From contig JAZGDL010000435.1 in assembly GCA_036477795.1 (NCBI GenBank), positions 1 to 63,721 of the forward strand: 63,721 bases of DNA, in the 5' to 3' direction. A program made the translations under genes and the position numbers. The stretch comes from Phycisphaerae bacterium (lineage in GTDB: Bacteria > Planctomycetota > Phycisphaerae > UBA1845). Shown one piece after another: positions 1,049 through 63,052 of the stretch. The notes beneath the pieces were generated by a model. The model made no database searches. It was not told the DNA's origin and saw only the letters and a list, made by a program, of their open reading frames with translations. Position 1 is the stretch's first letter. Every line of letters begins with the position of its first letter.

Positions 1049-2056
1049 TCAACGTATCACGTTATCCGGGAAACTGGCGGTGGCGAGCACGCCGGCGACG
1101 AAGGTGCCGTCGCTGTTGGGTACTTCGATGACGACGCGGAACGTGTTCGATGCGGCGTCAACCAGTGGATCAGCAGCCACGACGACTCCCTCGCGGATCA
1201 CAGGCACTGCCGCGGCATCGCCCGATGGATCGTCGGGCCTGGTGGCGCCGTCAGGTGATGAACAGGCCACTTGCACGACGGCTCTAGTGCCGACGTGAAC
1301 GCGTGAAAACAGGTCGGGCGGGAGGTGGCACTCGACCCACATGGGATCGAGCCGCACCAGGACGGCGATCGGCTCCAGGTCCGCCACGCCCTCGCCCTCT
1401 TCTTTCAATGTGCGAAGGATGACGCCGTCGAACGGGGCCAGTAGTTTGCGCTCGGCCAGCAGCAGTTGCTCCCGACGGTACTCCAAACCAGCGAGCTGCT
1501 TGTTGAAGCGCGCCGTCTCGGCGAGAACCTCGCGGAGCTCGACCTCGACGGTCGTTGTTTCGACCTCCCATTTGCTGGCGGCCTGCTTGGCTTCGAGCTC
1601 TTGAAACTGTCTCAGTTCGGTTTGCTTGAGCTTCAATTCTGTTTCGGCCAGGCGGATCTCGTGGTTGCTCTCGGCCTTGACGCGGGCGATGTCGAGCGAC
1701 TGCCGTTCGAGTTCGCTCTTGAGTTCGGCGATGACTTCGCCCTTCTTGACCTCTTGGCCGGCGACGACGGGCAGTCGGGCGAGCACCCCCGAGACACGGA
1801 GCACGAGGTCGACGTCGCGGCTGGGGCGTGTCAGGCCTTGATAGGTCTTGGCCGAATCCTGAGCTTCCACCCGGCGTGCCATCGGTACCGCTAGTGCCAT
1901 TATCATGACACCAATCAGCCCAGCCGACCGCCGAAGCGGTTTTCGATCATCCAAACGATGCGAGTCGCGACCCTGAATGCCACCAATGCGGGAGCATGAA
2001 GGGAGCGGTCCGCTTTGGGCGTCTACGGCTGTGGACGGAGTTGTCGGTGAATCCAT
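1049..2056 (-). CDS. HlyD-family membrane fusion protein (periplasmic adaptor), orphan
   Basis: 335-aa ORF. It has an N-terminal TM segment (LIGVMIMALAVPMA), a lipoyl-like motif (VVAGQEVKKGEVIAEL), a long coiled coil (ELERQSLDIARVKAESNHEIRLAETELKLKQTELRQFQELEAKQ) and the LLAPFDGVI motif. Confidence 0.85.
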   Translation of the reverse strand: MDSPTTPSTAVDAQSGPLPSCSRIGGIQGRDSHRLDDRKPLRRSAGLIGVMIMALAVPMARRVEAQDSAKTYQGLTRPSRDVDLVLRVSGVLARLPVVAGQEVKKGEVIAELKSELERQSLDIARVKAESNHEIRLAETELKLKQTELRQFQELEAKQAASKWEVETTTVEVELREVLAETARFNKQLAGLEYRREQLLLAERKLLAPFDGVILRTLKEEGEGVADLEPIAVLVRLDPMWVECHLPPDLFSRVHVGTRAVVQVACSSPDGATRPDDPSGDAAAVPVIREGVVVAADPLVDAASNTFRVVIEVPNSDGTFVAGVLATASFPDNVIR

Positions 2057-2496: not shown

Positions 2497-3837
2497 ATGA
2501 TGCGGGTTTTGTCGTCGGTTCTTTGGCTGGGTTGCGTAGCTGCGGCGTACGCGGGGGGCGTGGGCGTCCCCGGAACCATCGCCCACCAGGGCGTGATCGC
2601 CGTTCACGGGGAGCGGTTCACGGGGCAGGGAGAGTTTCGGTTCGCGTTGGTGAATGCCGAAACCGACGCCTACTTATGGGTGAACGACGGCAGCGCGGTG
2701 GCGAACCCCGATCCTCCGACGGACGCCGTGATCCTGCCAGTGATCAACGGCGTGTACAACGTCCGACTCGGCGACGAGGCCATCGGGAACATGACGGCTA
2801 TCCCGCCGGCGTTGTTCCATGACAACGACAACGTCGCCTTGCGCATCTGGTTCGACGATGCACGCGGCAACGGCACACATCGGCTCGCCCCGGATCAGCC
2901 GATCAGCAGTGTCCCCTTCGCCCATCACAGCGCGACCATTGACGACGACGCGGTAACGTCGGTCAAGATCGCTGATGGGCAGGTCGGCAACGTCGACTTG
3001 GCCGACAACGCCGTCAACAGCGCCAAGATCCAAGACGGAACCGTCATCGCGGCGGACTTGGCGACGAATTCGGTCAATAGCGCCGAGATCGCCAGCGGCG
3101 CGGTCAACACCGACGAAATTGCCAACAACGCGGTCACATCAGCGAAGATCGCGAGCGACGCTGCGTCGCTCAACAGGGTTTCCGGCGGAACGATGTGGTC
3201 CGTTGGGGGCAGCGTCGGCATCGGGACCAACGACCCAATTGGGTATCAGCTCCGCGTGAAAGGGAATGTCTGCATCACCGGGAACCTCTGCGTCGACGGT
3301 GCCATCACCGCTACCGGTCCCATTACCGCCCTCGTTTGTGGCATTGACTGCTTTGGTTGCTGCGCCGGTCCTTCCGACCGTCGCCTGAAGGACCACATCA
3401 AGCCGATTGCCGGGGGCCTCGAAAAGGTCACCCGCCTCCGCGGGGTCAGCTTCCAATGGCGGCGCGACGAGTTCCCCAAGATGAACTTCCGGGATGGCCA
3501 GCAGATCGGGCTGATCGCCCAGGAGGTGGCCGAGGTTCTCCCCGAGGTCGTGGTTAGCAATGCCGACGGCTACAAAGGCATCCAGTATGGCAAGGTCGTC
3601 GCGGTGCTGGTTGAGGCCATCAAGGAGCAGCAGCAGATGATCAACTCGACTCGAAGCGAGCTCGGCGAGCTGAAGCAGCGCCTCGCCGCGGTTGAACGCG
3701 CGGTTGGAGTGGAGCCGAAGCCCCAGCGCGCCAACTCCGCGGGTCTTGCCGGGGCGCTGACAGCCACCGCACTGGCCCTGGCCGGGCTGATCGGTTTCAT
3801 GATGCACGCCCGTTCGCGCAGGGGAGGAGCGCGATGA
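2497..3837 (+). CDS. Secreted fibre-like protein with a C-terminal S74-type intramolecular chaperone domain and a terminal TM anchor
   Basis: AAGGAG lies 7 nt upstream of the ATG, and a signal peptide is present. It carries the shared N-domain (HQGVIAVHGERFTGQGEFRFALV...NGVYNVRLGD...LRIWFDD). Short repeats follow (NAVNSAKIQDGTVIAADLATNSVNSAEI). The S74 signature is SDRRLKDHIKPI...LRGVSFQWRRDE...IGLIAQEVAEVLPEVV...IQYGKVVAVLVEAIKEQQ. The protein ends GLAGALTATALALAGLIGFMMHARSRRGGAR. Confidence 0.85.
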   Translation: MMRVLSSVLWLGCVAAAYAGGVGVPGTIAHQGVIAVHGERFTGQGEFRFALVNAETDAYLWVNDGSAVANPDPPTDAVILPVINGVYNVRLGDEAIGNMTAIPPALFHDNDNVALRIWFDDARGNGTHRLAPDQPISSVPFAHHSATIDDDAVTSVKIADGQVGNVDLADNAVNSAKIQDGTVIAADLATNSVNSAEIASGAVNTDEIANNAVTSAKIASDAASLNRVSGGTMWSVGGSVGIGTNDPIGYQLRVKGNVCITGNLCVDGAITATGPITALVCGIDCFGCCAGPSDRRLKDHIKPIAGGLEKVTRLRGVSFQWRRDEFPKMNFRDGQQIGLIAQEVAEVLPEVVVSNADGYKGIQYGKVVAVLVEAIKEQQQMINSTRSELGELKQRLAAVERAVGVEPKPQRANSAGLAGALTATALALAGLIGFMMHARSRRGGAR

Positions 3838-4556: not shown

Positions 4557-4906
4557 ACCAGCGGCGGTAACAACGCCCTGTATGTTACCGGCTTGCCGGT
4601 GTGTCCCAGCCGTCCGCCGGGCCGGGTGAAGCCTGACGACTGACACCGTTCCGCCGTCGCACTCCGCGTCGTGTCGTTCCCGGATCGCGTAAACTTCCAC
4701 CGGGAATGAAACGCGGCGGTCTGCCCCTTATGGCTCGTCTGTCCGTTTTCCGTGGACGGCGACGCCCAGCCGAGGTTACGGGCCGGATTCTGGGTGTAAA
4801 TAGGCTTTATTTCGGGGCGGCGGCTTGGTATACTCGCCCCTCGGGTACGGTTCGGGCAAGGCGTATCGAACGCCTGTTTCTACTTCGGAATAGACGGAGA
4901 GTGATC

Positions 4907-6094
4907 ATGTTGAAGAAGCACAAGAGAATCTCGATGGCGTTTATGGCCTTGGGATTGGCGCTGGTGGGGGTGGTGGTCAGTCATGTTTGGGCGGCGGTGC
5001 CGGCGGTCATGACGCACCAGGGCGTGATATCCGTCCACGGGGAGCGGTTCAGCGGAACGGGGAGTTTCTACTTCGCACTGGTCAGTTCCGCCGCGGATGT
5101 CAACCTGTGGACCAACGACGGAACGCAACTCGGAACGATGGCGCGCCCCGACGCAGCCCTCCCGCTCACCGTCGTCAACGGGGTATACAACGTGGCGCTC
5201 GGGGCTACGCCGATGCCGCCCGTTCCGTCGGAAGCGTTCGAGAACGACGACGTCCTTCTACGCATCTGGTTTGACGACGGCGCCGGAAACGGCGTCCATC
5301 AGCTTGCGCCCGACGTCGTGCTATCGAGCGCACCCTATGTTTTTCGGGCGTTGGACTCGGATCGAGCCGGCGAGGCCGAACACGCCGTTGAGGCTGACCA
5401 CGCTGCTGACGCCTCCACACTCGGCGGTTTCCTTCCGCGGGAACTCGTGCCCGCCGGCGCGATGCTCGCATTCGGCGGGTCCACAGCGCCCAACGGCTGG
5501 CTATTGTGCCACGGGTCGGCCGTCGGCAGGACGACCTTCGCCGACCTGTTCGCGGCGATTGGAACAGCCTACGGCAACGGCAACGGTTCCACGACGTTTC
5601 ATCTGCCCGATATGCGCGGGCGATTCCTGCGCGGCGTATCCGGTACGACCGCCAACGATCCCAACCGAACCACGCGCACCGCCTCGAACATCGGTGGCAG
5701 CACGGGCAACAACGTCGGGTCGCTGCAAGCTGACGCGACAAGCCGACCCAATTCCAACTTCACGACGAATTCCGTATCAAACCACACCCATTTCATCCAT
5801 CCGGCGGGGTCGCACTCGCACAGCGTCGACACCGCGACACATACGCACGTCGCCCAAATGCGCAATGGCGCTGCTACCGGAGGTTTTCCGACCGAGCCGC
5901 GGGCGGGCAGTGGCAGCTTCCTAGGCCTGCAAAGCATTCTTGGCGACGGTAACCACAACCACAGCCTCGGATCGGCGGCTGCCCATAACCATCCCGCGGT
6001 TTCGAGCGGCGGCCATGGACACTCCGTCACCGGCGGCGGTGACTCCGAAACCCGACCGGTCAATGTCTACGTCAATTGGATCATCAAGCACTGA
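4907..6094 (+). CDS. Secreted fibre-like protein with a phage tail-collar C-terminal domain
   Basis: Internal ATG at 4907 with GGAGA upstream and signal peptide MLKKHKRISMAFMALGLALVGVVVSHVWA (the longest ORF starts at 4706). It carries the shared N-domain (HQGVISVHGERFSGTGSFYFALV). Collar signature: GAMLAFGGSTAPNGWLLCHGSAVGRTTFADLFAAIGTAYGNGNGSTTFHLPDMRGRFLRG. His-rich tail (HTHFIHPAGSHSHS...HNHS...HGHS) ends ETRPVNVYVNWIIKH. Confidence 0.85.
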   Translation: MLKKHKRISMAFMALGLALVGVVVSHVWAAVPAVMTHQGVISVHGERFSGTGSFYFALVSSAADVNLWTNDGTQLGTMARPDAALPLTVVNGVYNVALGATPMPPVPSEAFENDDVLLRIWFDDGAGNGVHQLAPDVVLSSAPYVFRALDSDRAGEAEHAVEADHAADASTLGGFLPRELVPAGAMLAFGGSTAPNGWLLCHGSAVGRTTFADLFAAIGTAYGNGNGSTTFHLPDMRGRFLRGVSGTTANDPNRTTRTASNIGGSTGNNVGSLQADATSRPNSNFTTNSVSNHTHFIHPAGSHSHSVDTATHTHVAQMRNGAATGGFPTEPRAGSGSFLGLQSILGDGNHNHSLGSAAAHNHPAVSSGGHGHSVTGGGDSETRPVNVYVNWIIKH

Positions 6095-6190
6095 ACGAGC
6101 ACGATCTCCAGGAGTGATGGTCCCGACCGTCAGGCCCCGTGCTCGCGATGGGGGACCTGATTGCCGCGATCGTTCGCACGCGCCGAACTA

Positions 6191-6330
6191 CAGTGCAAGG
6201 TCAGCCGTTTCTGCCTGTGGGACCGGCTTTCCAGCCGGTCAGACCGCTCGCTGGCGCAATGAGACCGGCTGGAAAGCCGGTCCCACATGTATTGTAGCCG
6301 CCATGAGGCAACCTTGCGCTGCACTGCTAA
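6191..6330. repeat. Palindromic repeat element, copy B (complete, both termini)
   Basis: Left end is ACAGTGCAAGGTCAGCC. The core has 25-nt inverted arms (TGTGGGACCGGCTTTCCAGCCGGTC / GACCGGCTGGAAAGCCGGTCCCACA). Right end is ACCTTGCGCTGCACTGCTAA. It sits between convergent genes, and its last bases supply the stop codon of the SecA-like gene. Confidence 0.75.
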
Positions 6331-8318
6331 AATCGTTCCCCGGCGAATCCGAGGGATTCCTCGAGCCAGTCGTCGGAGCGTAGAACAGCGCGGCGTTGCG
6401 CGAAAGCCATTCGCTCGGCGCGGCGTTGGGCGCGGTTAAAGGCGGCGCGGGTCAATGAAGCCAAGTGATTGTTGCGTTCATTGACGGTGAGCTTTCGCAG
6501 GAATCGCCGGGCTCCCGGGGCGAAGCGGACGAGAAGGTCATCCTCAAGGCTTAGCAGGGCGACGGCGGAACCCGGGTCGCCCTGGCGGGCGGCGCGGCCG
6601 AACAACTGACGATCAATTCGCCCGGCGGCGTGGCGCTCAGATGCGACGACGTGCAGACCGCCGATCCCAGCGACGCCACGGCCCAGCTTGATGTCGGTGC
6701 CCCGACCGGCCATGTTCGTGGCCACGGTGATCGCCCCGCGTTGACCCGCTTGGGCGATGATGTTGGCTTCAGCCTCGTGCCGCACGGCGTTGAGGACCTG
6801 ATGTTTCAGCCCGGCTGTGGTGAGCAACGCGCTCAGACGCTCGCTATCCTTGACGCTTCGTGTGCCGACGAGCACCGGCTGCCCGTTGTCATGAACCTGT
6901 CGAACCTCATCGACAATGGCTTGCCACTTGGCGTCCGCCGTCGGGAAACAGCGATCGTGCTGCCGGCGGCGTTGCACGGGTCGATGAGTTGGAATGACCA
7001 CAACGGGCAGACCATAAACCCGCCAGTATTCGCTACGTCCTTCAATGACCGTGCCGCTCAGTCCCGACACTTTGACGTACATTCGGAAGAAACGCTGAAA
7101 ACTGATCCGGGCTTGCGTGATCTTGGGGGGATTGACGGTAACTTTCTCTTTGGCTTCGATGGCTTGGTGAAGCCCGTCGCGCCAGGTCCGGTCGGGCATG
7201 GTTCGACCCGTCGATTCGTCGACGATGACGATTTTGTCGTCGGCGATTATATATTGCTTGTCACGATGGAAGAATTCCCTGGCGGACAGCGCTTGGGTGG
7301 TCAGTTCCTCGCCGCGTCGTTGAGAGCGCCACAGGCCACCCAATGGGGATGACATTGCGTTCAGGCGGCGACGGCCATTTTGGGTCAGTGTGACTTCGTT
7401 GTATTGAGCAACGACGATATAATCCTCGAGGGGTTGAAGTTTCGCCGCGAGCGTCGCAGCCTCTGTGTAGCATTGCACTTGTTCGGCGTTGGGAGCCTCG
7501 CCGGAAATGATCAGCGGCGTCACGGCTTCATCGAGTAGAACGGAATCGGCTTCGTCTATGATGGCGCAGTGCAACCCTCTTTGAACGACTCGCTCCTGCG
7601 GATCGTAACGGTGGACGATTCCGTCGATCAGAACTTCCGACAGGTTCCGTCGGCCTGCGAGCACGAGCCGATCGCGAAGAAAATCAGCGGTGACCTCCTT
7701 GTTGGTGCAATAGGTCATGTCGGCGTGGTAGGCGCGGCGCCGTTCGGCGGGGGGCGTGTCCTGCTGAAGGGATGCCACGGTCAATCCGCAACATTGGAAG
7801 ATGCCGGCCATCCACTCCGCATCGCGCCGGGCCAAATAATCATTCACCGTGACGACGTGGCAGCCTCGGCCGCGCCAACCGACGAGCGTGGCAGCCATGG
7901 CGGCGACCAGCGTCTTGCCCTCTCCCGTGGCCATCTCACAGATGCAACCGCCGTCGCAGGCCAGCGCTGCGGCGATCTGTACGCGGAATGGCCGTTCTCC
8001 AATCTTGCGAAAAGCGATCTCGCGGATAATGGCCAGCGCTCGATCGACATCGTGCCGGGACTCTCTACCGCATCGGAATAGCTCCGCAAGTGGACCAGTG
8101 GTTTCTCGCAGATGTTTGTCTGATACGGTGAGAAACTCGCGCTCCATGCCCAGAACGGCGTCGGCGCGTCGTAGAAAATGGCGCGGTCCGGTTTGAAATC
8201 GCCGTATCACGCCGCGCAGCACATCCCATCCCGCATCCAGTCCCGTCGGCAGGGCCCGCAATCTTGCAGGATTCGACAGGCTGCGCCACGTTGAACCGAT
8301 GGTATGGGACACGGTCAT
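6327..8318 (-). CDS. Truncated SecA-like ATPase (DEAD-type motor plus preprotein cross-linking domain only)
   Basis: Walker A EMATGEGKT (7911-7934), VVTVNDYLARRD, IIDEADSVLLDEA, the PPXD segment, TNMAGRGTDIKLG and RIDRQLFGRAARQGDPGS. The protein ends about 75 aa after the motor. The ATG at 8318 overlaps the upstream stop (ATGA); the longest ORF begins at 8363. Confidence 0.9.
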   Translation of the reverse strand: MTVSHTIGSTWRSLSNPARLRALPTGLDAGWDVLRGVIRRFQTGPRHFLRRADAVLGMEREFLTVSDKHLRETTGPLAELFRCGRESRHDVDRALAIIREIAFRKIGERPFRVQIAAALACDGGCICEMATGEGKTLVAAMAATLVGWRGRGCHVVTVNDYLARRDAEWMAGIFQCCGLTVASLQQDTPPAERRRAYHADMTYCTNKEVTADFLRDRLVLAGRRNLSEVLIDGIVHRYDPQERVVQRGLHCAIIDEADSVLLDEAVTPLIISGEAPNAEQVQCYTEAATLAAKLQPLEDYIVVAQYNEVTLTQNGRRRLNAMSSPLGGLWRSQRRGEELTTQALSAREFFHRDKQYIIADDKIVIVDESTGRTMPDRTWRDGLHQAIEAKEKVTVNPPKITQARISFQRFFRMYVKVSGLSGTVIEGRSEYWRVYGLPVVVIPTHRPVQRRRQHDRCFPTADAKWQAIVDEVRQVHDNGQPVLVGTRSVKDSERLSALLTTAGLKHQVLNAVRHEAEANIIAQAGQRGAITVATNMAGRGTDIKLGRGVAGIGGLHVVASERHAAGRIDRQLFGRAARQGDPGSAVALLSLEDDLLVRFAPGARRFLRKLTVNERNNHLASLTRAAFNRAQRRAERMAFAQRRAVLRSDDWLEESLGFAGERF

Positions 8319-10486
8319 AGACGGAATCGCTTCTGAATCAATTGTTCGATGGACCGCCACCACTGCAGCGCGAGCGGCTTGGCCGGCAGTGCAAAACGGA
8401 CCACGACGCGCTGGCCCGCATAGAAAAACTGCTGACCGGCGGGTTCAATGCGGACTTCAAAGAACGGTTCGGCCGCTTTTCGTCCGGTGGGGTCATCGGC
8501 CTTGGTCTCGACGCTTCCTCCGGCGAAGATGCTCAAGGACTGAGCGGGCAGTTGTTCCTGGCCGGCGGGGTATATCTCGGTGATCGTGCCGCGCCATTGG
8601 ATGTCCGGGCGCGACCTCGCCCGGATTTCGACCTCCGGACGCGCGTCGCTCACGAGAATGGCAGCGGTGTATTGGTCGGCGGTGGCCCGTATGCAAAAGT
8701 CGGTCAGGTCGGCCACCATGCCGATGGGTTCGCCTCGGCGAACATAGGCGCCGATCCGGTTCTCAATACCTGGCGAAATCCAAGTGCCCGCGAACGGTGG
8801 ATAGATGGCGAGCGAGGCCAGTTCCTCGTGCTTTCGCGTGATCTGATCGTCCAGCGCGGTGGTCTGCTCCTCGAACACTTGGACGGCGGCCATGTCACTG
8901 TCCCGCAGAGCCCACCTCCGGCGCACTTCGGTTCCGCGTCTTTCCGCGAATAGGCTGCTCAGTTCCATGACGAGCTGCGCATTGTCGGCCTCCACGAGCG
9001 TCGCTTCGCCGGGCCTCGCCGCCGATCCCGAAGATGCGGCGCGTCGAATGAATCCGTCGGCCCGGGCGTGCACAATCGCGATGCGGCGCGGTTCCACGAC
9101 TCCTTCCGCGCGGAGATGATCGGGCACCGGGATCAGGCACATGGCGCAGGCGGTGCCGCCAACCATGGCGCTGATTGTACCAACGGCCCGGCGCCGAACG
9201 CGTGCTAATTCGCCGCTGGTCGCCAAGTAGTGGATCAGAGTAAAAAGCGGGACCAGGCCCATGGTGACGACGGCGCCCATCGCCAGGATGGCGCCGAGGA
9301 AGAAGAGCTTATCGGCGATGAACAAGATGATGGCTACGGCCACGATTGTGCGATAGATCGTAGACGTCACGGCGTAGAAAAAGAGCCAGCCGTGTTCGCG
9401 AGCCGTGCATGGATGGACGACGCTCTTGAGGCCCCAGAGGTAACGCTTCACCAGATAGTAGATGTACCGGCGGCTGCGCGTGGCGAGGTTCGGGATTTCC
9501 AACAAGTCCGACAGTATGTAGTAGCCATCGTAACGTAGAAGAGGATTGACATTGAACAGCAGTGTGGACACGCCGGAAATGAAAAGGACATTGTAGGCCA
9601 AAGCGTTCGTCAGTGTCCCTTGAGACGTGTTCGTCCAGACCAGGGCCGCGACACCGGCCAGGGCGAACTCTGCCAGGATTCCCGCGGCGCCGACGACAAT
9701 GCGCTGCCATTTGCTTCGAAACGTCCATGCGCTGGAGGCGTCGACGTATGGGACCGGCGTGAAGACAAGCAGCATGATGCCCATTTCGTGGACGTCCCCT
9801 CCGGTTCCATTGAGCCGTCCAAACCGCTTGCAGGCAAATGCGTGCCCAAACTCGTGGAACACTTTCGTCAGTACGAAGCAAACATAAAGCCAAGGGAGGT
9901 TGTCCTGGCTCAGAACGCCCGAAGCGTGGTTCTGCAGCGCCTCCCAGTGCCCGGCGAGGCTGACGAGGCCGAGGATCAGCAGCGCGCATACAGCGCCTCC
10001 GCCGTACCAGGTGAACGCACGTCCGAACAGCCATACCCAGCGGTTCAATAAATGATTGGGGTTGAACAAAGGTATCTTGGCGAACAAGATGCTGGATAGT
10101 CGTCCCTGTATTTCCCGCTTGATCCGCTTGCGGTACCGGCGGAAGAGCACTTCCGAATCGCCGGGCAGCTCGCAATAGAGCAGATTGGCGGCGTATAACC
10201 GGCCGAGCAGTTCAACGACTTCATTCTGAGTCGGGGCATCGTCGCCCAGCCGATCGTTACACAGCGTCCAGGCGTCCGCGACGCGGCGCCGCCCGTCCAG
10301 GAGGGCCATGAAGTAATAACCGGGCTCGTTCAACCGAAAGTGCTGGTTGTTGGCCGAGTCCCGCGCGACATGCCAGGTTCTCCCGCGAAACTGCTGCCGG
10401 TAGACGTGCACGGTGGTTCGCAATCGCGGTGACAGATCGGCGACCTTGTGCCAGGATTCACTGAAGGTGGTTCGCAAGGTCGTCAT
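8315..10486 (-). CDS. PqqD-like domain / M50 (site-2 protease) / HlyD-type periplasmic domain fusion protein
   Basis: 723 aa. The N-terminus is PqqD-like (FRLNEPGYYFMALLDGRRRVADAW...VVELLGRLYAANLL). Polytopic core carries HEFGH (9842-9856) and NPLLRYDG (9524-9547). The C-terminal ~270 aa are MFP-like (coiled coil, beta-barrel). Confidence 0.85.
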   Translation of the reverse strand: MTTLRTTFSESWHKVADLSPRLRTTVHVYRQQFRGRTWHVARDSANNQHFRLNEPGYYFMALLDGRRRVADAWTLCNDRLGDDAPTQNEVVELLGRLYAANLLYCELPGDSEVLFRRYRKRIKREIQGRLSSILFAKIPLFNPNHLLNRWVWLFGRAFTWYGGGAVCALLILGLVSLAGHWEALQNHASGVLSQDNLPWLYVCFVLTKVFHEFGHAFACKRFGRLNGTGGDVHEMGIMLLVFTPVPYVDASSAWTFRSKWQRIVVGAAGILAEFALAGVAALVWTNTSQGTLTNALAYNVLFISGVSTLLFNVNPLLRYDGYYILSDLLEIPNLATRSRRYIYYLVKRYLWGLKSVVHPCTAREHGWLFFYAVTSTIYRTIVAVAIILFIADKLFFLGAILAMGAVVTMGLVPLFTLIHYLATSGELARVRRRAVGTISAMVGGTACAMCLIPVPDHLRAEGVVEPRRIAIVHARADGFIRRAASSGSAARPGEATLVEADNAQLVMELSSLFAERRGTEVRRRWALRDSDMAAVQVFEEQTTALDDQITRKHEELASLAIYPPFAGTWISPGIENRIGAYVRRGEPIGMVADLTDFCIRATADQYTAAILVSDARPEVEIRARSRPDIQWRGTITEIYPAGQEQLPAQSLSIFAGGSVETKADDPTGRKAAEPFFEVRIEPAGQQFFYAGQRVVVRFALPAKPLALQWWRSIEQLIQKRFRL

Positions 10487-10497
10487 GGTGCTTCAAT

Positions 10498-10575
10498 GAA
10501 TGGCGAATAGCGAATGGAGAATTCAGAAAGGGGATTGACTCATCATTCGCTATTCGCCATTCGCTATTCGCCATT
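10498..10575. repeat. Intergenic hairpin built from GCGAATAGCGAATGG units inside the operon
   Basis: GAATGGCGAATAGCGAATGG (10498-10517) is complementary to two overlapping registers of the tandem 14-nt unit CATTCGCTATTCGC (10544-10571). It ends 12 nt upstream of the M50 fusion start codon. Confidence 0.7.
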
Positions 10576-10593
10576 TCCCTTATGCAGTCGTGG

Positions 10594-12522
10594 CTACCAC
10601 CAAAGTTGCATCCGCACCCAGTTGACGAATGGGCGCGTCCAGATCCACAGGTAGCTGCGGCGGTCCACATCGATTTTGGCGGTGCCCGCCATGCCGGGGC
10701 GAAGCCAGGGACGCGACTCGCCCAGGCGAACGCGCACCTTGAACACATTGCGCCCCTCGGCGACCTCGGCTACGGGATTGATGTGCTCGACCGTGAATGG
10801 CAGCAGGTCGCCGGGCAGCGATGCGGAAGCCAACCGTCCGGTCTGGGCGAGTCGGATGTCGGGGATCTGATCCTCGGGGATGGCGATCTCTGCGCGGAGG
10901 TCGTCCAACGGCGTCACTTCGAACAGCAGGTCGCCGGTCTTGAAGGGAGCCCCGAGCTGACGCTCGAGGTCTCCGGAGATGACGACGCCGGATGTAGCGG
11001 ACCGGATTTCGGCTTGAGCGATCTTATAATCGAGCAGATCGATCTGGGCCTGGATCCGGGCGGCTTGCGCCTCTGCGATCTGGGCCTCAGCCTCCTCGCC
11101 TCTACGCCGAGCCAGGGCTGCTCGCTTCGTTTCAGCCGAGGCTTCCGCCCGGGCCGAGGCGAGCTGCAATCGCAGTTCTGCGGTCTCGAATGTAGCCAGG
11201 ACCGTCTCGCCGGCGCGAACGGAATCGCCGATCTTGACGTGCACGTCTTCCAGGTATCCATCGAACGGCGCCGGCACGATCTGCCGTGTGCTAGGCTCAA
11301 TGACGAACGACCCTTCCGCCCGGTATTGGCCTTTGACCAGCGTGAGAAACAGCGCGGCTGCAAAGCCCAGCAGCGACAACACCTTGGCCCAGGTGTGCGT
11401 AGGGCCGACCAGGGCAGCCAGCCCACGCCGTATGGTCCTCGCTGCCCGGGCGCCGAACCAACGATCCCGCTCATAGAGATCCACGAGTCGCGCAGTGCAC
11501 AGATCGATAGCCAAACGTAGTGTGCGAACCTGGGCCGCATCCAAAGGGTCATCCAGGGGCCGGTCGATGGTCAGCACAGCGCATGACTCGGCAACGGGCC
11601 GGGCGGAGGACCGCCCGGCGCCGGTGTGGCGAATCGGTATGCTGCACACGGATACGGGGCCGTGGCGTGCGGAGAACTCGGCAGCGGCGCGATATACGTA
11701 ACGTGCGGCAGGGTCTGCCGGGTAGACAACCTCAACGTCCTGGTCGAACGATTCCTCCATGGTCGCTTCGAGGTCCTGAACGAGTTGCGTCCGGCGATCG
11801 AACCGTTCGGTGTGACTGAGGGCCCGCAGGACGACGTAGCGCCCCTGTCGAAAGCCAAGTCCGACGCGTTGCCCGTGCCACCGCGAGGCCACCTCGTTGC
11901 ACAAAGTCATGGCCGTGCTCAGGAATCGGTCGTGCTCGTTGACCGCGGCAACCACCTCCAAAGCCACTTTCATGTGCCGAAGGTCGTCATCGCGGGCTTC
12001 CAGCGTCAGCCTCATTTCGTACAGGCTGAGCAGTTGCATGGACAGTTCGAGGCGTTCGCGCCGGGTCTGGAGCTCAGCCGATGAGTCCGCGGCGATCACG
12101 AAGGCGGCCGCCCCGCGTACGGTCGAGGTGCTGCGAATCGGGATGGTCAACACGTGGCGGAGTGATGAACCGGGCTGAGGGCAGCCAGGCTCCGATCTGT
12201 CGTCGGAATCGGTGTCACGTAGTGGCACGATAAGAGTTCCGGCGTCGGAGGCATTGAGTTTCTTCGCCGCTTCGGCTGCGATCGCCAACCAGACCATGGG
12301 CGTGGAGGATTCGGTGCAACGCGGGTGAATGGCCAGGGGCTGGGCGACGCCGTCGGCATTGATTCGCAGGATGGCGCCACGTTCGGCGCCGGCCATGGCG
12401 CATTGTCCCGCGAGGAGATGATCCAGGAACTCGTCCGGCGGGCCCTCGAAGTGCGCCAGTTGCTCCAATGAGACGGCGCCGGGCGACGTCCCGGTCCAAG
12501 CTGGCCTAGCAACGTTCTCCAC
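10594..12522 (-). CDS. GAF-like sensor domains fused to a HlyD-family membrane fusion protein
   Basis: 642 aa. The ~370-aa cytoplasmic N-terminus has two GAF-like regions. One TM segment (VLSLLGFAAALFLTLV) follows. Then MFP features: PFDGYLEDVHVKIGDSVRAGETVL, a coiled coil (AEAQIAEAQAARIQAQIDLLDYKIAQAEI) and SGVVISGDL. Confidence 0.8.
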   Translation of the reverse strand: MENVARPAWTGTSPGAVSLEQLAHFEGPPDEFLDHLLAGQCAMAGAERGAILRINADGVAQPLAIHPRCTESSTPMVWLAIAAEAAKKLNASDAGTLIVPLRDTDSDDRSEPGCPQPGSSLRHVLTIPIRSTSTVRGAAAFVIAADSSAELQTRRERLELSMQLLSLYEMRLTLEARDDDLRHMKVALEVVAAVNEHDRFLSTAMTLCNEVASRWHGQRVGLGFRQGRYVVLRALSHTERFDRRTQLVQDLEATMEESFDQDVEVVYPADPAARYVYRAAAEFSARHGPVSVCSIPIRHTGAGRSSARPVAESCAVLTIDRPLDDPLDAAQVRTLRLAIDLCTARLVDLYERDRWFGARAARTIRRGLAALVGPTHTWAKVLSLLGFAAALFLTLVKGQYRAEGSFVIEPSTRQIVPAPFDGYLEDVHVKIGDSVRAGETVLATFETAELRLQLASARAEASAETKRAALARRRGEEAEAQIAEAQAARIQAQIDLLDYKIAQAEIRSATSGVVISGDLERQLGAPFKTGDLLFEVTPLDDLRAEIAIPEDQIPDIRLAQTGRLASASLPGDLLPFTVEHINPVAEVAEGRNVFKVRVRLGESRPWLRPGMAGTAKIDVDRRSYLWIWTRPFVNWVRMQLWW

Positions 12523-12580
12523 GGTCCAATCTCGGCAATGTCTCGGCGCCTGGCGCTCCCCGCGTATCCAACAAGTTGTC

Positions 12581-12955
12581 CTAGGCGGGTTTGCGACGTT
12601 GGGCGACGTTCAGCTCCAGCGGGCCGAATTGTTCCTCGTATCGCTTAATCTGCTGTCCCAGCGAGATGGCCAGCCTCTTGGCGGAATAGTAGTTCATCAC
12701 CACGCGATCGCCGACCGTAAACACGCAATTGACAGTGTTGTCGTCCTTGCGGACCGGCTGTGCATGGTCGATAAGGTTGACGCCGAAATCGATGATCACT
12801 TCCTCGGCGGTGAACTGTGTGCGGAAACCGTTGGCATAGGTCGTGCGCAGATCCCGTTGATCAACACGCAGCCGAACCTGACGCTTACCGACCTGATCCT
12901 GCGCTTGCTGCTCGACCTGCTCGTCTGCCGTATCGTTTTGTTTCGGAGTGTCCAT
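12581..12955 (-). CDS. DUF3467-like small protein, first gene of the operon
   Basis: 124 aa. After an acidic/Gln-rich N-terminus comes YANGFRTQFTAEEVIIDFGVNL...VVMNYYSAKRLAISLGQQIKRYEEQFG, matching my recollection of the DUF3467 pattern (Y.N......t..E...DFg). Confidence 0.7.
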   Translation of the reverse strand: MDTPKQNDTADEQVEQQAQDQVGKRQVRLRVDQRDLRTTYANGFRTQFTAEEVIIDFGVNLIDHAQPVRKDDNTVNCVFTVGDRVVMNYYSAKRLAISLGQQIKRYEEQFGPLELNVAQRRKPA

Positions 12956-13280
12956 TTCGGTCTACCGCCTTTCTGCCAAAATCGAGATCACGCCTCAGCG
13001 AGCCCCCCTCCCCAAACTGAGAAGTGCCCGTACCAAGCCGGGATCGAACTAGAGCATATCCGACGTGCGGTTGATTCGCAATTCAGAATCCAGAAGACCG
13101 CATGTCGGAGCCATCAGCAGCCTCAAGTGTCGCTTCAAGGCGATAATCGGCCGTTTTTGTTGTGGCAGCCGGGGGGACATGGTGATAGTATACGTCTGGA
13201 TATTGTGACGGGAAAGGGCCCACCGGCACATACCTACCGTCAAAACGAGGGCTTGGTCATTTAGGTCACGGAGGCACGGC

Positions 13281-16200
13281 ATGCGCACATCGACGTCCGA
13301 GGCGCGTGATGGGGGCTACTACTTTGAGCCGCTCGAGCCGCGAGTGTTACTCAGCGGCACGATGTTAACCCTCGACAGGCCCGACGAGCTGTTGGGCAAC
13401 CCGGGCGGGATGACGATCGACGCCGGCGACCGTGCTGCGTTCGAGGAAGGGTTGTCGGCGGTTCGATCGGTGCTCGAATCCGTCAGCGTGCTGGACGAGT
13501 ATCTGGCGCAACTTCCGCTTGTCGGGGGCAGTGTGCTCGACCGCCTCCCATCATTCGACGCCTTACAAGACCAAGTCATCGATCAGATCGAGAGCTTCTT
13601 CCAAGACAACCCGGCTCCGGTCGTGTCGTTGTTTGAGTCACACTTCGAGGGGCTGGGCTGGACGGTCGATTTCAACGCCGTCACGCACGAACTGTCCGCC
13701 AGCGTGCCCGTCAACATCGACGTGACGCTGACGGAGCAGGACGTCGACCTGAGTTCGCGGGATCCGATCGAGCTTAGCGGTGGAGACCTTTCGTTGGGGT
13801 TGGATCTGCCGAGTATGGATGTCCACGGACAGCTCGACTTGGACATCACCTTCGGCGTGGATTTGGATAACTCGGCGTTCTTCACTCAGGTTCCGAACTT
13901 CACGGCAACATTGGACGCCGGAGCCGACCCGCTGAATGCAGAGGCGACGCTGGGGTTCCTGGCCCTTTCGGTTGTCGGTGGCTCGTTGGACTTCCAGGCG
14001 GGTCTGGATATCGACATCGGGAACGGTCAAGTCCTGACCCTCTCGCAGCTTCAGAACACCCCGATTTCGCAACTTGTCGACGTGAACGTCGATCCGAGCT
14101 CGTCGATTTCAGCCGAGTTGCCACTGCAACTCACCGCCGGCGTCGGCAACCTGTTTACCCTCAGCGGAACGCCGCACGTGACGTTGTCGGTATCGGACCT
14201 GTTCGGCGTTTCCGACGGACCCACGTTTGATTACCAGGTTCAGGATCTTGACCAGTTGTCGGACTTCGAGGTGGCCTCTCCGGCGGCTGTGATCAGCGCG
14301 TTCAGCCAACTGGCCAACTGGTTTAACAACTTCGGTCTTAGCGAAGTATTCGATCTGGAACTGCCCTTCCTGGACGGTGTGGACCTATCGGCGCTGGACC
14401 TGGGCGAGGCGATGACCCAAGCCTTCACCGAACAGTTGCAGGCGATTCGGTTGACAGCCCCGAACAACGCCCCAACGGGGATGGTGACCGCCAACCTCAC
14501 CCTTCGGCTCAACGATCAGCAGAACGTCTCGGTGGGGATTTCGGGCAACTTTGCCAACACCGATGCCCTGGTCACAACCATCAACACTCAATTGACCACA
14601 AAGCTGAGCCAGCTTTTCGACGAGAACGAGGTGGACTTCCGCGGGATGGTTGAAGCGAACAATGCCAACGGGCGTGTCGAGTTCGTGGCCAACCCAAGCA
14701 AGGTGACGCAGGTGCGCGTCTCCTACACCGGGATGCAAGGCTTGGGGTTCGAGCAGAACCAGGAGGCGTCGGGGTTGGCCTTCGATTCCATCCAGAGCCT
14801 GGCAACGCTGCTGGGCAATGCGCTGGAGGGCAATACGCTGGGTCTGGCTGCCCAGGTCGGTGTCAACCCGACGTACGACCCCGAAACGCATGAGTTGACC
14901 TTCAACGTTGCGTTCACAGAAGAACTCGTCTCGGTTAAGGAGCCGCTGAGTTTCGGCCACGACTTCGGCGCGCTGGGCGCGATCAACACGTCGAGCACCA
15001 TGTCGTTCATGTCGACGGTTTCGGGTGCGTTCACCTTCGGGTTCCTGCTCCAGCCGTTGGCACCGGACTTCGTGTTGACGGATCAGACGTCGCTGGACCA
15101 ACTCGTGGCGCTCAACGGGTTCAAGAACAAGACGTTCGCGGACCTGTTGGCCTCGAGCGGACACGAACTGACGATCACCTTGCGCGATGGCACGACGCAC
15201 AACATTGATCTGAATGGGGCCTCGACGATCGGCGACGTGAGAAACCTGATTCAGACGCAGTCGCCGGTGACAGTGCAAATCAACGACGATCAAAACGGTC
15301 TGGACCTGATCCATCCCAACAACGTCAGCGGAAGCAGTAATTTCACGGTGCGTGCAGCCAACAGCGCGTTCGCCATCTACGCGCTGGGATTGCTGGCCAC
15401 CGGTGAGGAGTCGGGCGGGCAATGGGTCATCAGGGGCACGCCGTTGCACGGGGAGACGCTGGCAGACCGGATGTTCCTGCGCGACGATGCATCCATCGGC
15501 GGGCGGATCGACGCTATGGCGGCGGACATCGACGCCAGCGCGATGTTCGGCCGCAACCCGGTCGAAGAGGATCGTTTCTTCGTCGAGATCGGCATCGTGG
15601 ACGGCGGGGCCGTGGGATCGGCCGAGATCACAGTCGGATTGGCTGACCCCGACAATAGCGGCAACATTTTCCTCTCCGAATTGATTGACGCGGTCGCCGA
15701 CGACGTCACCAGCATCATCGATGCGTTCTCGCCCGATCCGACCGGGCACTTCATTGTCAATCTTCCGGTCGAGGTTTCATTCCTGAACATCGAGACGTCC
15801 CCCATGCCGGGCGAGGGCCCGCGGATCGTGCTGGAGTGGGACGCATCGGACCCGACCACCATCGAGCCGATGTTCCTGAATCTGGAGGACCTGCTCAGCT
15901 TCGAGAACGTGGGCGTCAGTGACATCATCTCGGCACTGACGGGGCCGGGCGGGTTAATCGACTATCTGCGCCAGATCGAGGGCGTCGACGAATTCTTCAC
16001 CATGGACATCCCGCTGCTGGATGCGAGCCTCGGCGACCTGGTGGACTTCGTCGACCGCTTTGCGGCGGACTTCGAGAAGTTTGAGCAGTCGCCGGCGTCG
16101 AGTCTGCAAACATTGGCGCAGAGCTTGGCCCAGACGTTGGGCATCCCCGCGTCTCTGGTCGACGTGGCGTTCGATTCCGTCTCAGCGCCGTCCACGTCAG

Positions 16201-43153: not shown

Positions 43154-43198
43154 CGCGGCTTGTCGATGCGGGCTGGCCATACCCGAAGGAGAACCTAC

Positions 43199-48090: not shown

Positions 48091-48115
48091 TGGCCGTGCT
48101 TTATGTTAAGCTGCC

Positions 48116-54756: not shown

Positions 54757-55026
54757 GCGTTAGTGTTCACTGCAAGTCAATGCCCGGGTGCCCCCACATG
54801 GCACAGATGAACAGTGGAATGCCCCACCACGCACCGGGGAAACGTGGCAATTGGGCGTTTGTTGCCCCCCGCCAGCGGTCGAACACTTGACTGATCTGGC
54901 GTAGTATGCCCCAATCCGAACACGGTCTAGTCCTGAACGACGGGGGAAAAATCCCAGGTTGCCAAAGCAGCGTTGCAGCCCGAGGAGCATGTTGGCGAAG
55001 GTAGGCGCGTCAGACGACGGTGGGGT

Positions 55027-60859: not shown

Positions 60860-60893
60860 TTCTTCCACCTTGGGCGGCGCGATTTGGCGCCGC

Positions 60894-62699: not shown

Positions 62700-63052
62700 C
62701 GTGGGATTCTCCGCCGCAGGCGATTGTTTATTCGTGGTCCTAGTCCCGTTCATCGGCCCAATGATCCTCATCACTTGGGATAACAGGATCCTCCGGAAAT
62801 CTGCCGTTCACCAGCCTGCCCCAAAGGGGTCTGTTGCTATGAATCCGTCAAGGTCCGTCGGGGCGGCCGCGCCCGACCCCGTTGGCTGGCGCATTGTAAG
62901 TGTAGCCAGGCACTTGTGGTAGTGAAATCTCTCGGGCACTGCAACACCACCAAAATCGCCCTTTTTCGACGTCCTGGTTCGATTTCCGGTATGCCGCGCC
63001 TCCGCTCGGGCGAGCAACCGACCGTCACGGTGCACACAGCAGGCTAGATGCC

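Follow-up and report, generated by a model that had tools for sequence, protein, structure and literature searches.

An export route for some of the largest bacterial proteins that has so far not been described is most likely encoded by a conserved set of genes, which is present in the 63,721-nucleotide contig of a Phycisphaerae bacterium analyzed here (the window) and is shared by at least seven phyla. Together with a TolC-family outer-membrane factor encoded elsewhere in the genome, its products probably form a dedicated envelope-spanning export apparatus, which probably also trims leaders, for proteins with an N-terminal LEPR-XLL motif. It is established that these genes form a conserved set, which domains they encode, that the catalytic motifs are intact and that the set is physically linked to genes for LEPR-XLL proteins. 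The cargo candidate in the window is an RTX/PKD protein of 8250 aa, whose gene is transcribed divergently. A description of the module was not found in the searchable literature.

LEPR-XLL (NF012209) is a curated but functionally orphan motif carried by some of the longest bacterial proteins. Its carriers are found in Planctomycetota, Verrucomicrobiota and many Proteobacteria, and include proteins of ~8,000 aa in Vibrio and Neptuniibacter.

The gene cluster and the giant protein

Table 1. Positions of the module genes, the giant gene and associated features in the window.
Feature	Position	Strand	Remarks
Short MFP gene	1049-2056	-	335 aa; outside the region covered by the original prediction
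SecA-like gene	6327-8318	-	663 aa from ATG; frame also opens at GTG 8363
ATGA overlap, M50-MFP stop/SecA-like start	8315-8318	-	read directly in the sequence
M50-MFP fusion gene	8315-10486	-	723 aa
GAF-MFP gene	10594-12522	-	642 aa
DUF3467 gene	12581-12955	-	124 aa
Divergent intergenic region, operon vs. giant gene	12956-13280		325 bp
Giant ORF	13281-38033	+	8250 aa; RTX, PKD and FG-GAP repeats, N-terminal LEPR-XLL leader
LEPR-XLL motif FEPLEPRVLLS	13323-13355	+	residues 15-25 of the giant protein; proposed export/recognition signal

The original prediction described an operon of four minus-strand genes, which are separated by gaps of 58 nt (12523-12580) and 107 nt (10487-10593), share one ATGA overlap and face the giant gene across a divergent region. 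This layout was reproduced in every detail, and profile searches returned the same domain assignments. All four genes are real, but the module is larger, with the short MFP gene as a fifth component; its product is also the third of the MFP-type proteins that had been counted in the window. The ATGA overlap suggests translational coupling of the M50-MFP and SecA-like genes. The promoters of the operon and of the giant gene presumably both lie within the divergent region; a scan of this region with the sigma-70 consensus, which is uninformative for such an organism, gave no match. The predicted lack of an ABC transporter was confirmed for all frames of at least 60 aa in the window, which contain neither an ABC signature nor a GxxGxGK[ST] Walker A motif. 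The accompanying claim that TolC is missing is correct for the window, where no OEP/TolC homologue was found, but does not extend beyond it: a TolC-family OEP gene is located in or beside the module at 15 of 82 related loci and at locus L114.

The giant protein contains 15 RTX (HemolysinCabind) stretches as well as PKD and FG-GAP domains, in agreement with the many RTX blocks noticed before. The RTX blocks are located in the middle of the protein, and the PKD domains near the C terminus. Its N terminus (residues 15-29) matches the LEPR-8K model NF012209 with 23.7 bits (cut-off, 17), and no other LEPR-type motif is present in the window. The profile of the motif, compiled from 106 leaders, consists of a hydrophobic residue, E-x-L-E-P-R, a hydrophobic residue, and L-L-S. 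In these leaders, K and R make up 20-30% of the residues upstream of the motif vs. 0-3% downstream, where D and E account for 10-20%, and a hydrophobic core is found in only five of them. Judged by its composition, the LEPR leader looks like an export signal. What marks the cargo is the LEPR-XLL leader and neither RTX repeats nor size; small LEPR proteins, such as those at loci L001 (89 aa) and L027, also adjoin the module.

The SecA-like protein matches the Pfam and NCBIfam profiles SecA_DEAD (1.5e-89), SecA_PP_bind (4e-27) and P-loop_SecA (1e-58). Of the SecA domains, it retains the DEAD motor with NBD1 and NBD2, the long scaffold helix and the preprotein cross-linking domain; a helical wing domain, a two-helix finger and a C-terminal tail are missing. 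SecA_SW was not matched in the Pfam search, and the part of Bacillus subtilis SecA that can be aligned is restricted to residues 26-608. The two-helix finger of canonical SecA inserts into SecY. The C termini of all 60 full-length homologues lie 0-7 residues past a common point, and no variation occurs in their Walker A, DEAD and VI motifs; on this basis, the ATPase looks active. A TM segment was not predicted in the protein. Its assignment as housekeeping SecA was rejected, as it scores 614 against a cut-off of 814 for NF009538 and its domain set is incomplete. SecA2 was also rejected: the scores for all four SecA2 equivalog models are under the cut-off, and no SecY-like family recurs in the neighborhood.

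The M50-MFP protein consists of a putative PqqD-like RRE (residues ~26-99), a polytopic M50 site-2-protease domain and an MFP domain with an α-hairpin (residues 453-704), with seven hydrophobic segments in total. According to the predicted topology, the RRE and the GAF region of the GAF-MFP protein are cytoplasmic and the MFP domains periplasmic. The scores for PqqD (PF05402; 23.0 bits) and Peptidase_M50 (26.0 bits) are just under the respective cut-offs of 23.4 and 27.2, but many homologues carry PF05402 and homologues carry PF02163; HlyD_D23 was matched with 31.8 bits. Both motifs of the M50 family, HExxH (residues 211-215) and NxxPxxxxDG (NPLLRYDG, residues 312-320), are present, and none of the residues H211, E212, H215, N312 and D320 is exchanged in any of 62 homologues; on this evidence, the protease looks active. 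In an AlphaFold2 model (pLDDT 84), the N-terminal unit is composed of three strands (residues 26-52) followed by three helices (residues 54-99), and the best Foldseek matches of the protein are MacA, AcrA, MexA and EmrA (E ~1e-11), all of them adaptors that dock onto TolC. More than 6,900 relatives are found in databases. The N-terminal half resembles RRE-bearing RiPP leader peptidases (NCBIfam daptide_HExxH vs. residues 20-412, 1.6e-47). Nevertheless, a daptide or epipeptide RiPP maturation protease was rejected, with scores of 162 against a cut-off of 300 for NF041824 and of 38 against 225 for NF058609; RiPP enzymes do not recur among the neighbors of the module at the 82 loci.

The GAF-MFP protein comprises a putative GAF-type sensor region, one TM segment (residues 377-395) and an MFP domain that matches HlyD_D23, HlyD_3 and RND_mfp. 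Of 25 aligned homologues, 24 matched GAF, GAF_2 or GAF_3 (best E, 2e-12), but the sensor region of the copy in the window remained unmatched in Pfam. One homologue contains a PilZ domain. The short MFP matches Pfam HlyD_3, HlyD_D23 and Biotin_lipoyl_2 and has an N-terminal membrane anchor, formed by a single hydrophobic segment (residues 45-63), in front of its MFP domain. The soluble DUF3467 protein (PF11950; 61.8 bits vs. a cut-off of 25) was modeled by AlphaFold2 (pLDDT 71) as four strands followed by a long helix, for which Foldseek found no match in the PDB with E < 0.6. A SecB-type chaperone was considered and rejected, the probability in hhalign being 0.3% against a manually entered sequence of Escherichia coli SecB. 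Thus, the suggestion that DUF3467 acts as a chaperone found support neither in similarity to SecB nor in a fold match.

Conservation of the module and linkage to LEPR-XLL genes

The co-occurrence of truncated-SecA, M50-MFP, GAF-MFP and, less often, DUF3467 genes, which the original prediction had proposed to examine across genomes, was found in a fixed order and in many phyla. Nearly all of 82 related loci show the order GAF-MFP, PqqD/RRE-M50-MFP, truncated SecA-like, with the GAF-MFP gene directly upstream of the M50-MFP gene, and the order is kept in essentially every locus that is long enough, at 36-78% identity. The hosts belong to at least seven phyla or classes thereof, i.e., Planctomycetota, Verrucomicrobiota, Desulfobacterota, Nitrospirota, Methylomirabilota, Beta- and Gammaproteobacteria, and Bacteroidota. 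Many of the loci come from MAG contigs, for which the taxonomic assignment may not be reliable. Such conservation of the order across phyla in the 82 loci is more than chance would give. When all neighboring ORFs were clustered, the only recurrent families were the three core families, the short MFP and DUF3467. A homologue of the short MFP is encoded beside the GAF-MFP, M50-MFP and SecA-like genes at ~40 of the 82 loci, and the DUF3467 gene is found directly upstream of the GAF-MFP gene at ~26 related loci, including those of Nitrospira, Methylomirabilia and Burkholderiales.

A SecA-derived motor is encoded in ~90% of the operons. The gene is absent from ~5 of ~65 operons identified via the M50 protein and from several operons identified via LEPR genes, in Marinobacter suaedae, Thiodiazotropha, Thiotrichales and Desulforhopalus, and no other ATPase gene is present there; the loci concerned are L076, L055, L133, L165, L189 and L191. 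The motor is, therefore, not a universal member of the operon. An ABC family was detected neither among the recurrent neighbors at the 82 loci nor in the operons without SecA.

The module was also repeatedly found as the direct neighbor of genes for LEPR-motif proteins, many of them giant; this was the second point that the original prediction had proposed to examine across genomes. ORFs flanking the module encode LEPR-type N-terminal motifs at 16 of the 82 loci, in 13 cases less than 500 bp from the edge of the module; among the taxa concerned are Nitrospira, Ramlibacter, Verrucomicrobia and Gammaproteobacteria. A rank-based neighbor test gave P = 0.003, though blurred by shadow ORFs. A reverse scan for the DNA pattern of the motif yielded 120 blocks of 8 kb, of which ~113 contain true N-terminal LEPR leaders. 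Module genes are present in ~15 of these 113 blocks (~13%), vs. roughly 0.5% expected by our own estimate, which assumes a single locus of ~8 kb in a genome of at least 3 Mb. A giant of ~7,950 aa (leader, ...RFRLESLEPRLLLSADP) is encoded by cultured Neptuniibacter caesariensis MED92 and by four complete Neptuniibacter genomes, where its gene immediately precedes the module in the same orientation. Four Vibrio species possess a homologous giant, with downstream homology to GAF-MFP in V. maerlii and, weakly, in V. superstes. Altogether, this arrangement was seen in Nitrospira, Burkholderiales, Gammaproteobacteria, Verrucomicrobia, Myxococcota and Desulfobacterota. In most cases, no other gene separates the LEPR gene from the module, and most of the adjoining LEPR genes encode proteins of 1,000-8,000 aa. 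However, ~60 of the 82 module loci have no LEPR gene within the available flanks, and the majority of LEPR genes do not adjoin a module. Thus, the linkage is frequent but not obligatory.

A possible export route and its alternatives

As both the conservation of the gene set and its linkage to LEPR genes were borne out, an MFP conduit with a SecA-type motor and, possibly, N-terminal processing of the cargo remains the best reading. The proposed replacement of the ABC component by such a motor has to be qualified in that the motor is not universal. Translocation, leader cleavage and complex formation can be outlined from the sequences as follows. The leader, i.e., a basic stretch followed by the LEPR motif, would be recognized in the cytoplasm. 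The best candidate for its receptor is the PqqD-like RRE at the N terminus of M50-MFP, and the PPXD clamp of the SecA-like protein might be an alternative or additional one. The DEAD motor of the SecA-like protein would then thread the chain with the N terminus first, so that export could take place during translation, which would suit a cargo of 8,000 residues. The inner membrane may be passed via an assembly around the polytopic M50 domain and the MFP anchors. The M50-fused, GAF-fused and short MFPs would build a duct through the periplasm and attach to a TolC-like channel, and the leader would be removed by the M50 intramembrane metalloprotease. The cytoplasmic GAF region may gate the system upon binding of a small ligand, and DUF3467 may be an accessory factor. 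As a counterpoint to the export reading, an inner-membrane protein-conducting channel was not found, and the SecA-like protein lacks the finger that inserts into SecY.

Adjacency to the giant gene could be coincidental if LEPR genes are common and the four genes form an unrelated housekeeping operon. Planctomycete genomes can indeed hold several LEPR genes (two MAGs gave two or three LEPR loci each), and most module loci lack a LEPR neighbor. Yet, the repetition of the adjacency across the taxa listed above, the immediate neighborhood of the two and the surplus of modules in LEPR blocks over the expected fraction make coincidence very improbable. Alternatively, the module might serve RiPP- or bacteriocin-like peptide maturation and export, or small-molecule efflux, with an indirect LEPR neighborhood, e.g., via co-regulated surface functions. 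Such a role, which would agree with the similarity of the RRE and M50 half to daptide and YydH/LiaK RiPP leader proteases, with the efflux-pump architecture of an MFP plus an OMF and with the existence of small LEPR ORFs like that in L001, is considered quite unlikely. The recurrent neighbors include neither a RiPP-modifying enzyme nor a precursor-like family, and the score for the daptide model is far under the cut-off. Furthermore, a SecA-derived motor is not known to play a role in peptide or drug efflux, and the sole recurrent neighbor class has one N-terminal motif across phyla and consists mostly of very long proteins.

There is also some chance, albeit a low one, that the module acts on LEPR-XLL proteins after or independently of their export, in anchoring, retention, release, quality control or regulated proteolysis. 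The M50 protease would then cut a membrane-associated leader and the MFPs and TolC would hold the protein, whilst the general Sec system or a canonical T1SS encoded elsewhere would translocate it. The linkage fits any LEPR-specific function, the operons without a SecA-like gene indicate that the module may not inherently include an ATP motor, and the cargo contains RTX repeats, which mark T1SS substrates in characterized systems. In addition, GAF domains, along with PilZ in one homologue, are reminiscent of LapA-type adhesins, whose retention and release are under c-di-GMP control. However, the prevalence of a SecA-derived motor (~90% of the operons) with invariant ATPase motifs and a PPXD clamp is hard to explain without threading of polypeptides. 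Moreover, the leaders lack a Sec-type hydrophobic core, an ABC transporter does not recur near the module, and the RTX blocks of the giant are central, whereas blocks accompanying a T1SS signal would be located next to the C terminus.

Beyond a dedicated export apparatus, the module might, more tentatively, represent a new class of secretion system, distributed over at least seven phyla, in which an RRE reads LEPR-XLL, a fingerless SecA-derived motor threads the cargo from N to C terminus, possibly co-translationally, through a duct of three MFPs and TolC, and the M50 protease acts as leader peptidase. If so, this class would explain how many of the largest proteins of diderm bacteria, of up to ~8,000 aa, leave the cell without Sec-, Tat- or T1SS-type signals. 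An architecture in which a SecA-derived motor is combined with an intramembrane leader peptidase, TolC and three MFPs would be new among secretion systems. Evolution would have put the SecA motor to use a second time, with no SecY-type coupling, and RRE-type leader recognition would extend from small RiPP peptides to giant proteins. Pairing of the motif with a machine opens experiments in cultured and partly tractable hosts, i.e., Neptuniibacter, species of the Vibrio halioticoli group, M. suaedae, Ramlibacter and Opitutaceae D2-102. It would also improve the annotation of thousands of genes now labeled 'PqqD family chaperone', 'efflux RND adaptor', 'SecA' or 'hypothetical'.

Comparison with known systems

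Like a T1SS, the module contains MFP adaptors of the MacA/AcrA/HlyD fold, many related operons include a TolC-family gene, and the linked cargo, whose gene commonly adjoins the machinery, is often giant, repeat-rich and RTX-bearing. In contrast to a T1SS, however, an ABC transporter is encoded neither in the window nor by conserved neighbors, and the candidate energizer is a SecA-derived DEAD motor. Furthermore, where a T1SS has one MFP, the module has three distinct ones, of which two carry fused cytoplasmic or membrane domains. The conserved signal (LEPR-XLL) is located at the N terminus rather than the C terminus, and an intramembrane M50 protease is built into the module.

The accessory Sec systems of Gram-positive bacteria export giant serine-rich adhesins. 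They consist of SecA2 alone or of SecA2 and SecY2 with Asp proteins and resemble the module in that a SecA paralogue serves only a few very large surface proteins with an atypical N-terminal signal and is encoded beside its cargo. The SecA-like protein of the module, however, scores below the SecA2 cut-offs and breaks off after the scaffold helix, neither SecY2 nor Asp genes recur nearby, and the hosts are diderm, with MFPs and an OMF as partners. The closest structural matches of the periplasmic domain come from tripartite efflux pumps such as MacAB-, AcrAB- and EmrAB-TolC, and docking of the α-hairpin onto an OMF is implied. Unlike these pumps, the module lacks an RND, MFS or ABC inner-membrane transporter, and the linked substrates are leader-bearing proteins.

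With the RRE-bearing RiPP leader peptidases (daptide_HExxH, YydH/LiaK), M50-MFP shares the succession of a PqqD-like element and an HExxH intramembrane metalloprotease, a layout suited to the binding and cleavage of an N-terminal leader. It differs from them in its scores far under the family cut-offs, in its fusion to an MFP, in the lack of RiPP enzymes nearby and in its presumed substrates, which are proteins of up to ~8,000 aa. Finally, as in the PEP-CTERM/exosortase and LPXTG/sortase systems, a short conserved sorting motif on many otherwise unrelated surface proteins is genomically linked to one specific membrane enzyme system. The LEPR-XLL motif is, however, N-terminal, and its partner is not a single transpeptidase but a module comprising an ATPase, MFPs and a protease.

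Gene layout of the window

The four minus-strand ORFs of the predicted operon were all reproduced (see the table), together with the gaps of 58 and 107 nt inside the operon, the ATGA at 8315-8318, where the stop codon of the M50 gene overlaps the start codon of the SecA-like gene, and the divergent region of 325 bp between the operon and the 8250-aa ORF. Domain and signature searches also confirmed that three membrane-fusion protein (MFP)-type proteins are encoded in the window and that an ABC-type signature is absent from it. Between the operon and the third MFP gene, which encodes a short MFP, lie two fibre-like genes on the plus strand. No gene for TolC or another outer-membrane efflux protein (OEP) was found in the window either. 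A promoter/terminator consensus scan of 6000-13400 was uninformative, since the matches were at or below shuffle expectation.

Features of the window (forward-strand coordinates)
Feature	Position	Strand	Remarks
Short MFP	1049-2056	-	
Fibre-like gene	2497-3837	+	NF053851-like
Fibre-like gene	4706-6094	+	
SecA-like ATPase	6327-8318	-	663 aa counted from ATG; frame also opens at GTG 8363
M50 fusion	8315-10486	-	723 aa
GAF-MFP	10594-12522	-	642 aa
DUF3467 protein	12581-12955	-	124 aa
Giant ORF	13281-38033	+	8250 aa
β-helix protein	39040-41286	+	748 aa
ORF	41462-43153	+	NF053851-like
ORF	43160-44011	+	NF053851-like
ECF-type sigma factor gene, Ser/Thr kinase gene immediately 3'	47464-50803	+	kinase 895 aa
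Second Ser/Thr kinase gene	54973-57138	+	721 aa
Adjacent FG-GAP/VCBS-repeat proteins	59336-62774	-	528 + 626 aa, ~29-nt overlap

One of the two fibre-like genes between the SecA-like and short MFP genes encodes a Sec-type signal peptide and an endosialidase-chaperone (Peptidase_S74) domain, and the other a phage tail collar domain. The three ORFs marked in the table show weak N-terminal matches to NF053851, a Bdellovibrio 'mosaic adhesive trimer' fibre family, at E values of 4e-4 to 4e-3, which is far under the cut-off, and one of them has a weak Peptidase_G2 match. Together, they may make up a trimeric surface-fibre family downstream of the giant gene. The protein encoded directly after the giant gene contains a right-handed β-helix, a PMP repeat and a choice-of-anchor Q domain. 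The pairing of an ECF sigma factor with a Ser/Thr kinase is typical of planctomycete-like genomes. The FG-GAP repeat is common to the minus-strand pair at the end of the window and the giant protein. Between 16000 and 36000, GC skew along the giant gene's coding strand is strongly positive, reaching +0.16, against ~0 elsewhere in the window.

Proteins of the module

Pfam and NCBIfam searches detected SecA_DEAD, SecA_PP_bind and P-loop_SecA in the SecA-like protein, and no match to the wing/scaffold domain SecA_SW. The protein can be aligned to residues 26-608 of Bacillus subtilis SecA and then stops; thus, by the domain positions in the established SecA structure, wing domain, two-helix finger and C-terminal tail are all missing from it. 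The same end point, within 0-7 residues, was found in 60 full-length homologues, in all of which Walker A (TGEGKT), the DEAD box and motif VI are invariant. The protein scores under the cut-off of every SecA and SecA2 equivalog model, and hydropathy revealed no transmembrane (TM) segment.

The M50 fusion falls slightly short of the Pfam cut-offs for PqqD (23.0 bits, cut-off 23.4) and Peptidase_M50 (26.0 bits, cut-off 27.2), and also matches HlyD_D23. Its residues 20-412 give a strong yet sub-threshold match (1.6e-47) to the NCBIfam daptide model for proteases with a RiPP recognition element (RRE) and an HExxH motif. More than 6,900 relatives of nearly constant length are present in the databases, with ~50% identity inside the Phycisphaerae. 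An AlphaFold2 model (mean pLDDT 84) has three regions: residues 26-99, predicted to form three strands followed by three helices, like RREs; a polytopic region bearing the invariant HExxH (211-215) and NPLLRYDG (312-320) motifs; and a predicted periplasmic barrel-sandwich/β-barrel domain with an α-hairpin at 503-557, for which the best fold matches in the PDB are MacA, AcrA, MexA and EmrA (E ~1e-11). As read from the sequence, the protease motifs of this protein and the ATPase motifs of the SecA-like protein are intact.

The GAF-MFP contains HlyD/RND-MFP domains (Pfam/NCBIfam) and a single TM segment at 377-395, and the short MFP an N-terminal membrane anchor, both as judged by hydropathy. The GAF-like domains of the original prediction went undetected by Pfam in the window's own copy, but Pfam GAF was detected in 24 of 25 aligned homologues; since a PDB sequence search with the cytoplasmic region of the window protein gave no matches, the assignment was made through these homologues. 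In one of them, a PilZ domain (5.6e-08) is additionally present, which hints that the module may be under control of c-di-GMP or another nucleotide.

The product of the fourth gene was identified as DUF3467 by Pfam/NCBIfam domain search and has no TM segment according to hydropathy. It had been proposed to act as a small chaperone or adaptor. Its AlphaFold2 model (pLDDT 71), in which four strands precede a long helix, at first suggested a SecB-like chaperone, but hhalign gave a probability of only 0.3% against Escherichia coli SecB, Foldseek found no fold match in the PDB (best E 0.69), and PDB sequence and profile searches yielded nothing meaningful. Thus, the chaperone idea was abandoned.

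Conservation of the module and linkage to LEPR-XLL genes

When each species was represented by one genome, scanning yielded at least 595 loci, of which the best 80 were kept and supplemented with two from long contigs. All ORFs of these 82 loci were searched with the window proteins. The order GAF-MFP, M50-MFP, SecA-like was found in practically every sampled locus that was long enough, in agreement with the predicted co-occurrence. The sampled loci, many of which are MAG contigs whose taxonomic assignment is uncertain, stem from Planctomycetota, Verrucomicrobiota (Limisphaerales, Puniceicoccaceae), Desulfobacterota, Nitrospira, Methylomirabilia, Flavobacteriales, Burkholderiales (Ramlibacter) and Gammaproteobacteria (Neptuniibacter caesariensis MED92, Motiliproteus, Oceanospirillum, Thiogranum). 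When the remaining ORFs of the 82 loci were clustered all against all, only two further recurrent families emerged, i.e., the short MFP, present in ~40 of them, and DUF3467, which, where found, always lies immediately upstream of the GAF-MFP gene. The short MFP is thus a fifth gene of the module. In 15 of these best-scoring and long-contig loci, it is adjoined by a gene for a TolC-family OEP; hence, the lack of TolC noted in the original prediction holds for the window, but in other loci a TolC-family outer-membrane factor (OMF) is part of the system. The typical operon in Verrucomicrobia and Desulfobacterota is OEP, short MFP, GAF-MFP, M50-MFP, SecA-like. In the Opitutaceae isolate D2-102, a LEPR gene, the OEP gene and the SecA-like gene are on one strand, with the short MFP and GAF-MFP genes divergent. 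The Desulfobacterales MAG CAYPSZ01 contains two separate module copies, one of them (locus L207, the other being L054) with DUF3467 and an adjoining LEPR gene.

The SecA-like motor is a module member in practically every long-enough locus but absent from a minority of operons, i.e., L076, L055, L133 (Desulforhopalus), L165 (Thiotrichales), L189 (Ca. Thiodiazotropha) and L191 (Marinobacter suaedae). The order here is GAF-MFP, M50-MFP, short MFP, followed in L191, L189 and L165 by a LEPR gene. No substitute ATPase gene was found near these operons, the neighbours being unrelated genes, and their M50-MFP copies are more divergent (~320-440 bits).

The giant protein contains 15 RTX stretches plus PKD and FG-GAP domains, and its N-terminus, MRTSTSEARDGGYYFEPLEPRVLLSG, passes the NCBIfam model NF012209 for the LEPR-XLL leader motif. 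Such N-termini were sought in module-flanking ORFs with a regular expression, which in its loose form gave 0-5 matches on shuffled sequences, and then with a small HMM of the motif. They were present at 16 of the 82 loci (the best 80 of at least 595, plus two), in 13 cases less than 500 bp from the module edge, in Planctomycetota, Nitrospira (L045), Ramlibacter (L078), Verrucomicrobia (L080) and a gammaproteobacterium (L069). Five more loci carry giant ORFs whose N-termini lie beyond the DNA covered. An upstream walk in N. caesariensis MED92 revealed a ~7,950-aa gene, the product of which starts with MAIKWNDLGKSRLWNAVNRANIGVPTEGAQRPSSARNALRNDRFRLESLEPRLLLSADP, ending 25 bp before the GAF-MFP gene, an arrangement repeated in four complete Neptuniibacter genomes. 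A homologous giant is found in four Vibrio species; in V. maerlii, and at a weak level in V. superstes, it is followed downstream by GAF-MFP homology.

In a reverse scan, a degenerate DNA pattern for the motif, biased to CGN-Arg and CTN-Leu codons and thus to high-GC genomes, gave at least 120 blocks of 8 kb. Genuine N-terminal LEPR leaders were present in ~113 of these, and ~15 of the ~113 contained module genes as well, including blocks from Rhodoferax, Desulforhopalus, Thiotrichales, a Myxococcota chromosome, Chthoniobacteraceae, Ca. Thiodiazotropha and M. suaedae. Although the majority of the sampled modules and of the sampled LEPR genes are not adjacent to one another, chance adjacency was rejected, as by our own estimate, with one ~8-kb locus per genome of 3 Mb or more, only ~0.5% would be expected. 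A rank-based immediate-neighbour test gave P = 0.003; since shadow ORFs in high-GC DNA make this test less sharp, more weight was given to the distances and the reverse scan. Thus, the adjacency to LEPR-motif genes anticipated in the original prediction recurs in other genomes. Giants are among these neighbours, but small LEPR ORFs with a full leader, of ~89 to ~200 aa, adjoin the module too, e.g., 7340-7608(-) in L001 and 5442-6092(-) in L027. The leader is therefore not limited to giant proteins, and the linked cargo is defined by its LEPR-XLL leader, not by its size.

Alignment of 106 distinct leaders on the motif revealed a hydrophobic residue, E-x-L-E-P-R, a hydrophobic residue, L-L-S and then A or G. 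In the 25 residues before the motif, K/R account for 20-30% and acidic residues are few, whilst the 35 residues after it contain 0-3% K/R and 10-20% D/E. The way in which the loci were found determines the motif core in part, but not the charge asymmetry. This asymmetry is the pattern that would be expected of an N-terminal export signal of which the basic part stays in the cytoplasm. A Sec signal peptide needs a hydrophobic stretch, and a 12-residue hydrophobic stretch was present in only 5 of the 106 leaders. Thus, the leader looks like an export signal, but not like a Sec signal.

Proposed export route and comparison with known systems

Given a module conserved over several phyla, with intact motifs, three MFPs and often an OMF gene, RRE-like and GAF domains and repeated linkage to LEPR genes, dedicated export and processing is the most economical explanation, and the module probably, if by no wide measure, exports and processes LEPR-XLL proteins. 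Less confidence is placed in a step-by-step mechanism, every step of which we infer. The SecA-derived motor would take the position held by the ABC transporter in type I secretion, and the RRE-M50 unit would recognize and remove the leader; the RRE-like and GAF domains of the module are predicted to be cytoplasmic. Threading with the N-terminus first might allow export during translation, which would be attractive for proteins of 8,000 residues. No inner-membrane channel was identified for the module, and its motor is without the finger that inserts into SecY. Overall, the original interpretation is supported in part: its comparative predictions held, but corrections were needed on TolC, which belongs to the system in other loci, on the fifth gene, on the leader as the defining mark of the cargo and on the SecA-like gene, which is not universal.

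Full-text searches of the literature yielded no description of the module or of an LEPR-XLL export route, only incidental mentions and work on SecA2 of Gram-positives and chloroplasts. A passage in PMC10868602 mentions incidentally a Vibrio LEPR-XLL/RTX protein of ~8,000 aa.

Comparison with known systems argues against membership of any of them. Like a type I secretion system, the module would have a periplasmic and outer-membrane duct, but no ABC transporter was found in the window or among the recurrent neighbours and the signal-like element is N-terminal, unlike in type I secretion. Its motor is Sec-like; however, the protein is truncated and scores below the cut-offs, in contrast to housekeeping SecA, and these same properties, together with the lack of a SecY2 partner, the diderm hosts and the MFP/OMF partners, set it apart from the accessory SecA2/SecY2 system. 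Leader recognition and cleavage would be RiPP-like, but a RiPP cluster is unlikely, as the scores remain below the cut-offs and modifying enzymes do not recur among the neighbours. Combining a proposed duct, motor and leader processing that are each reminiscent of a different system, the module seems to represent a type of system not described before.
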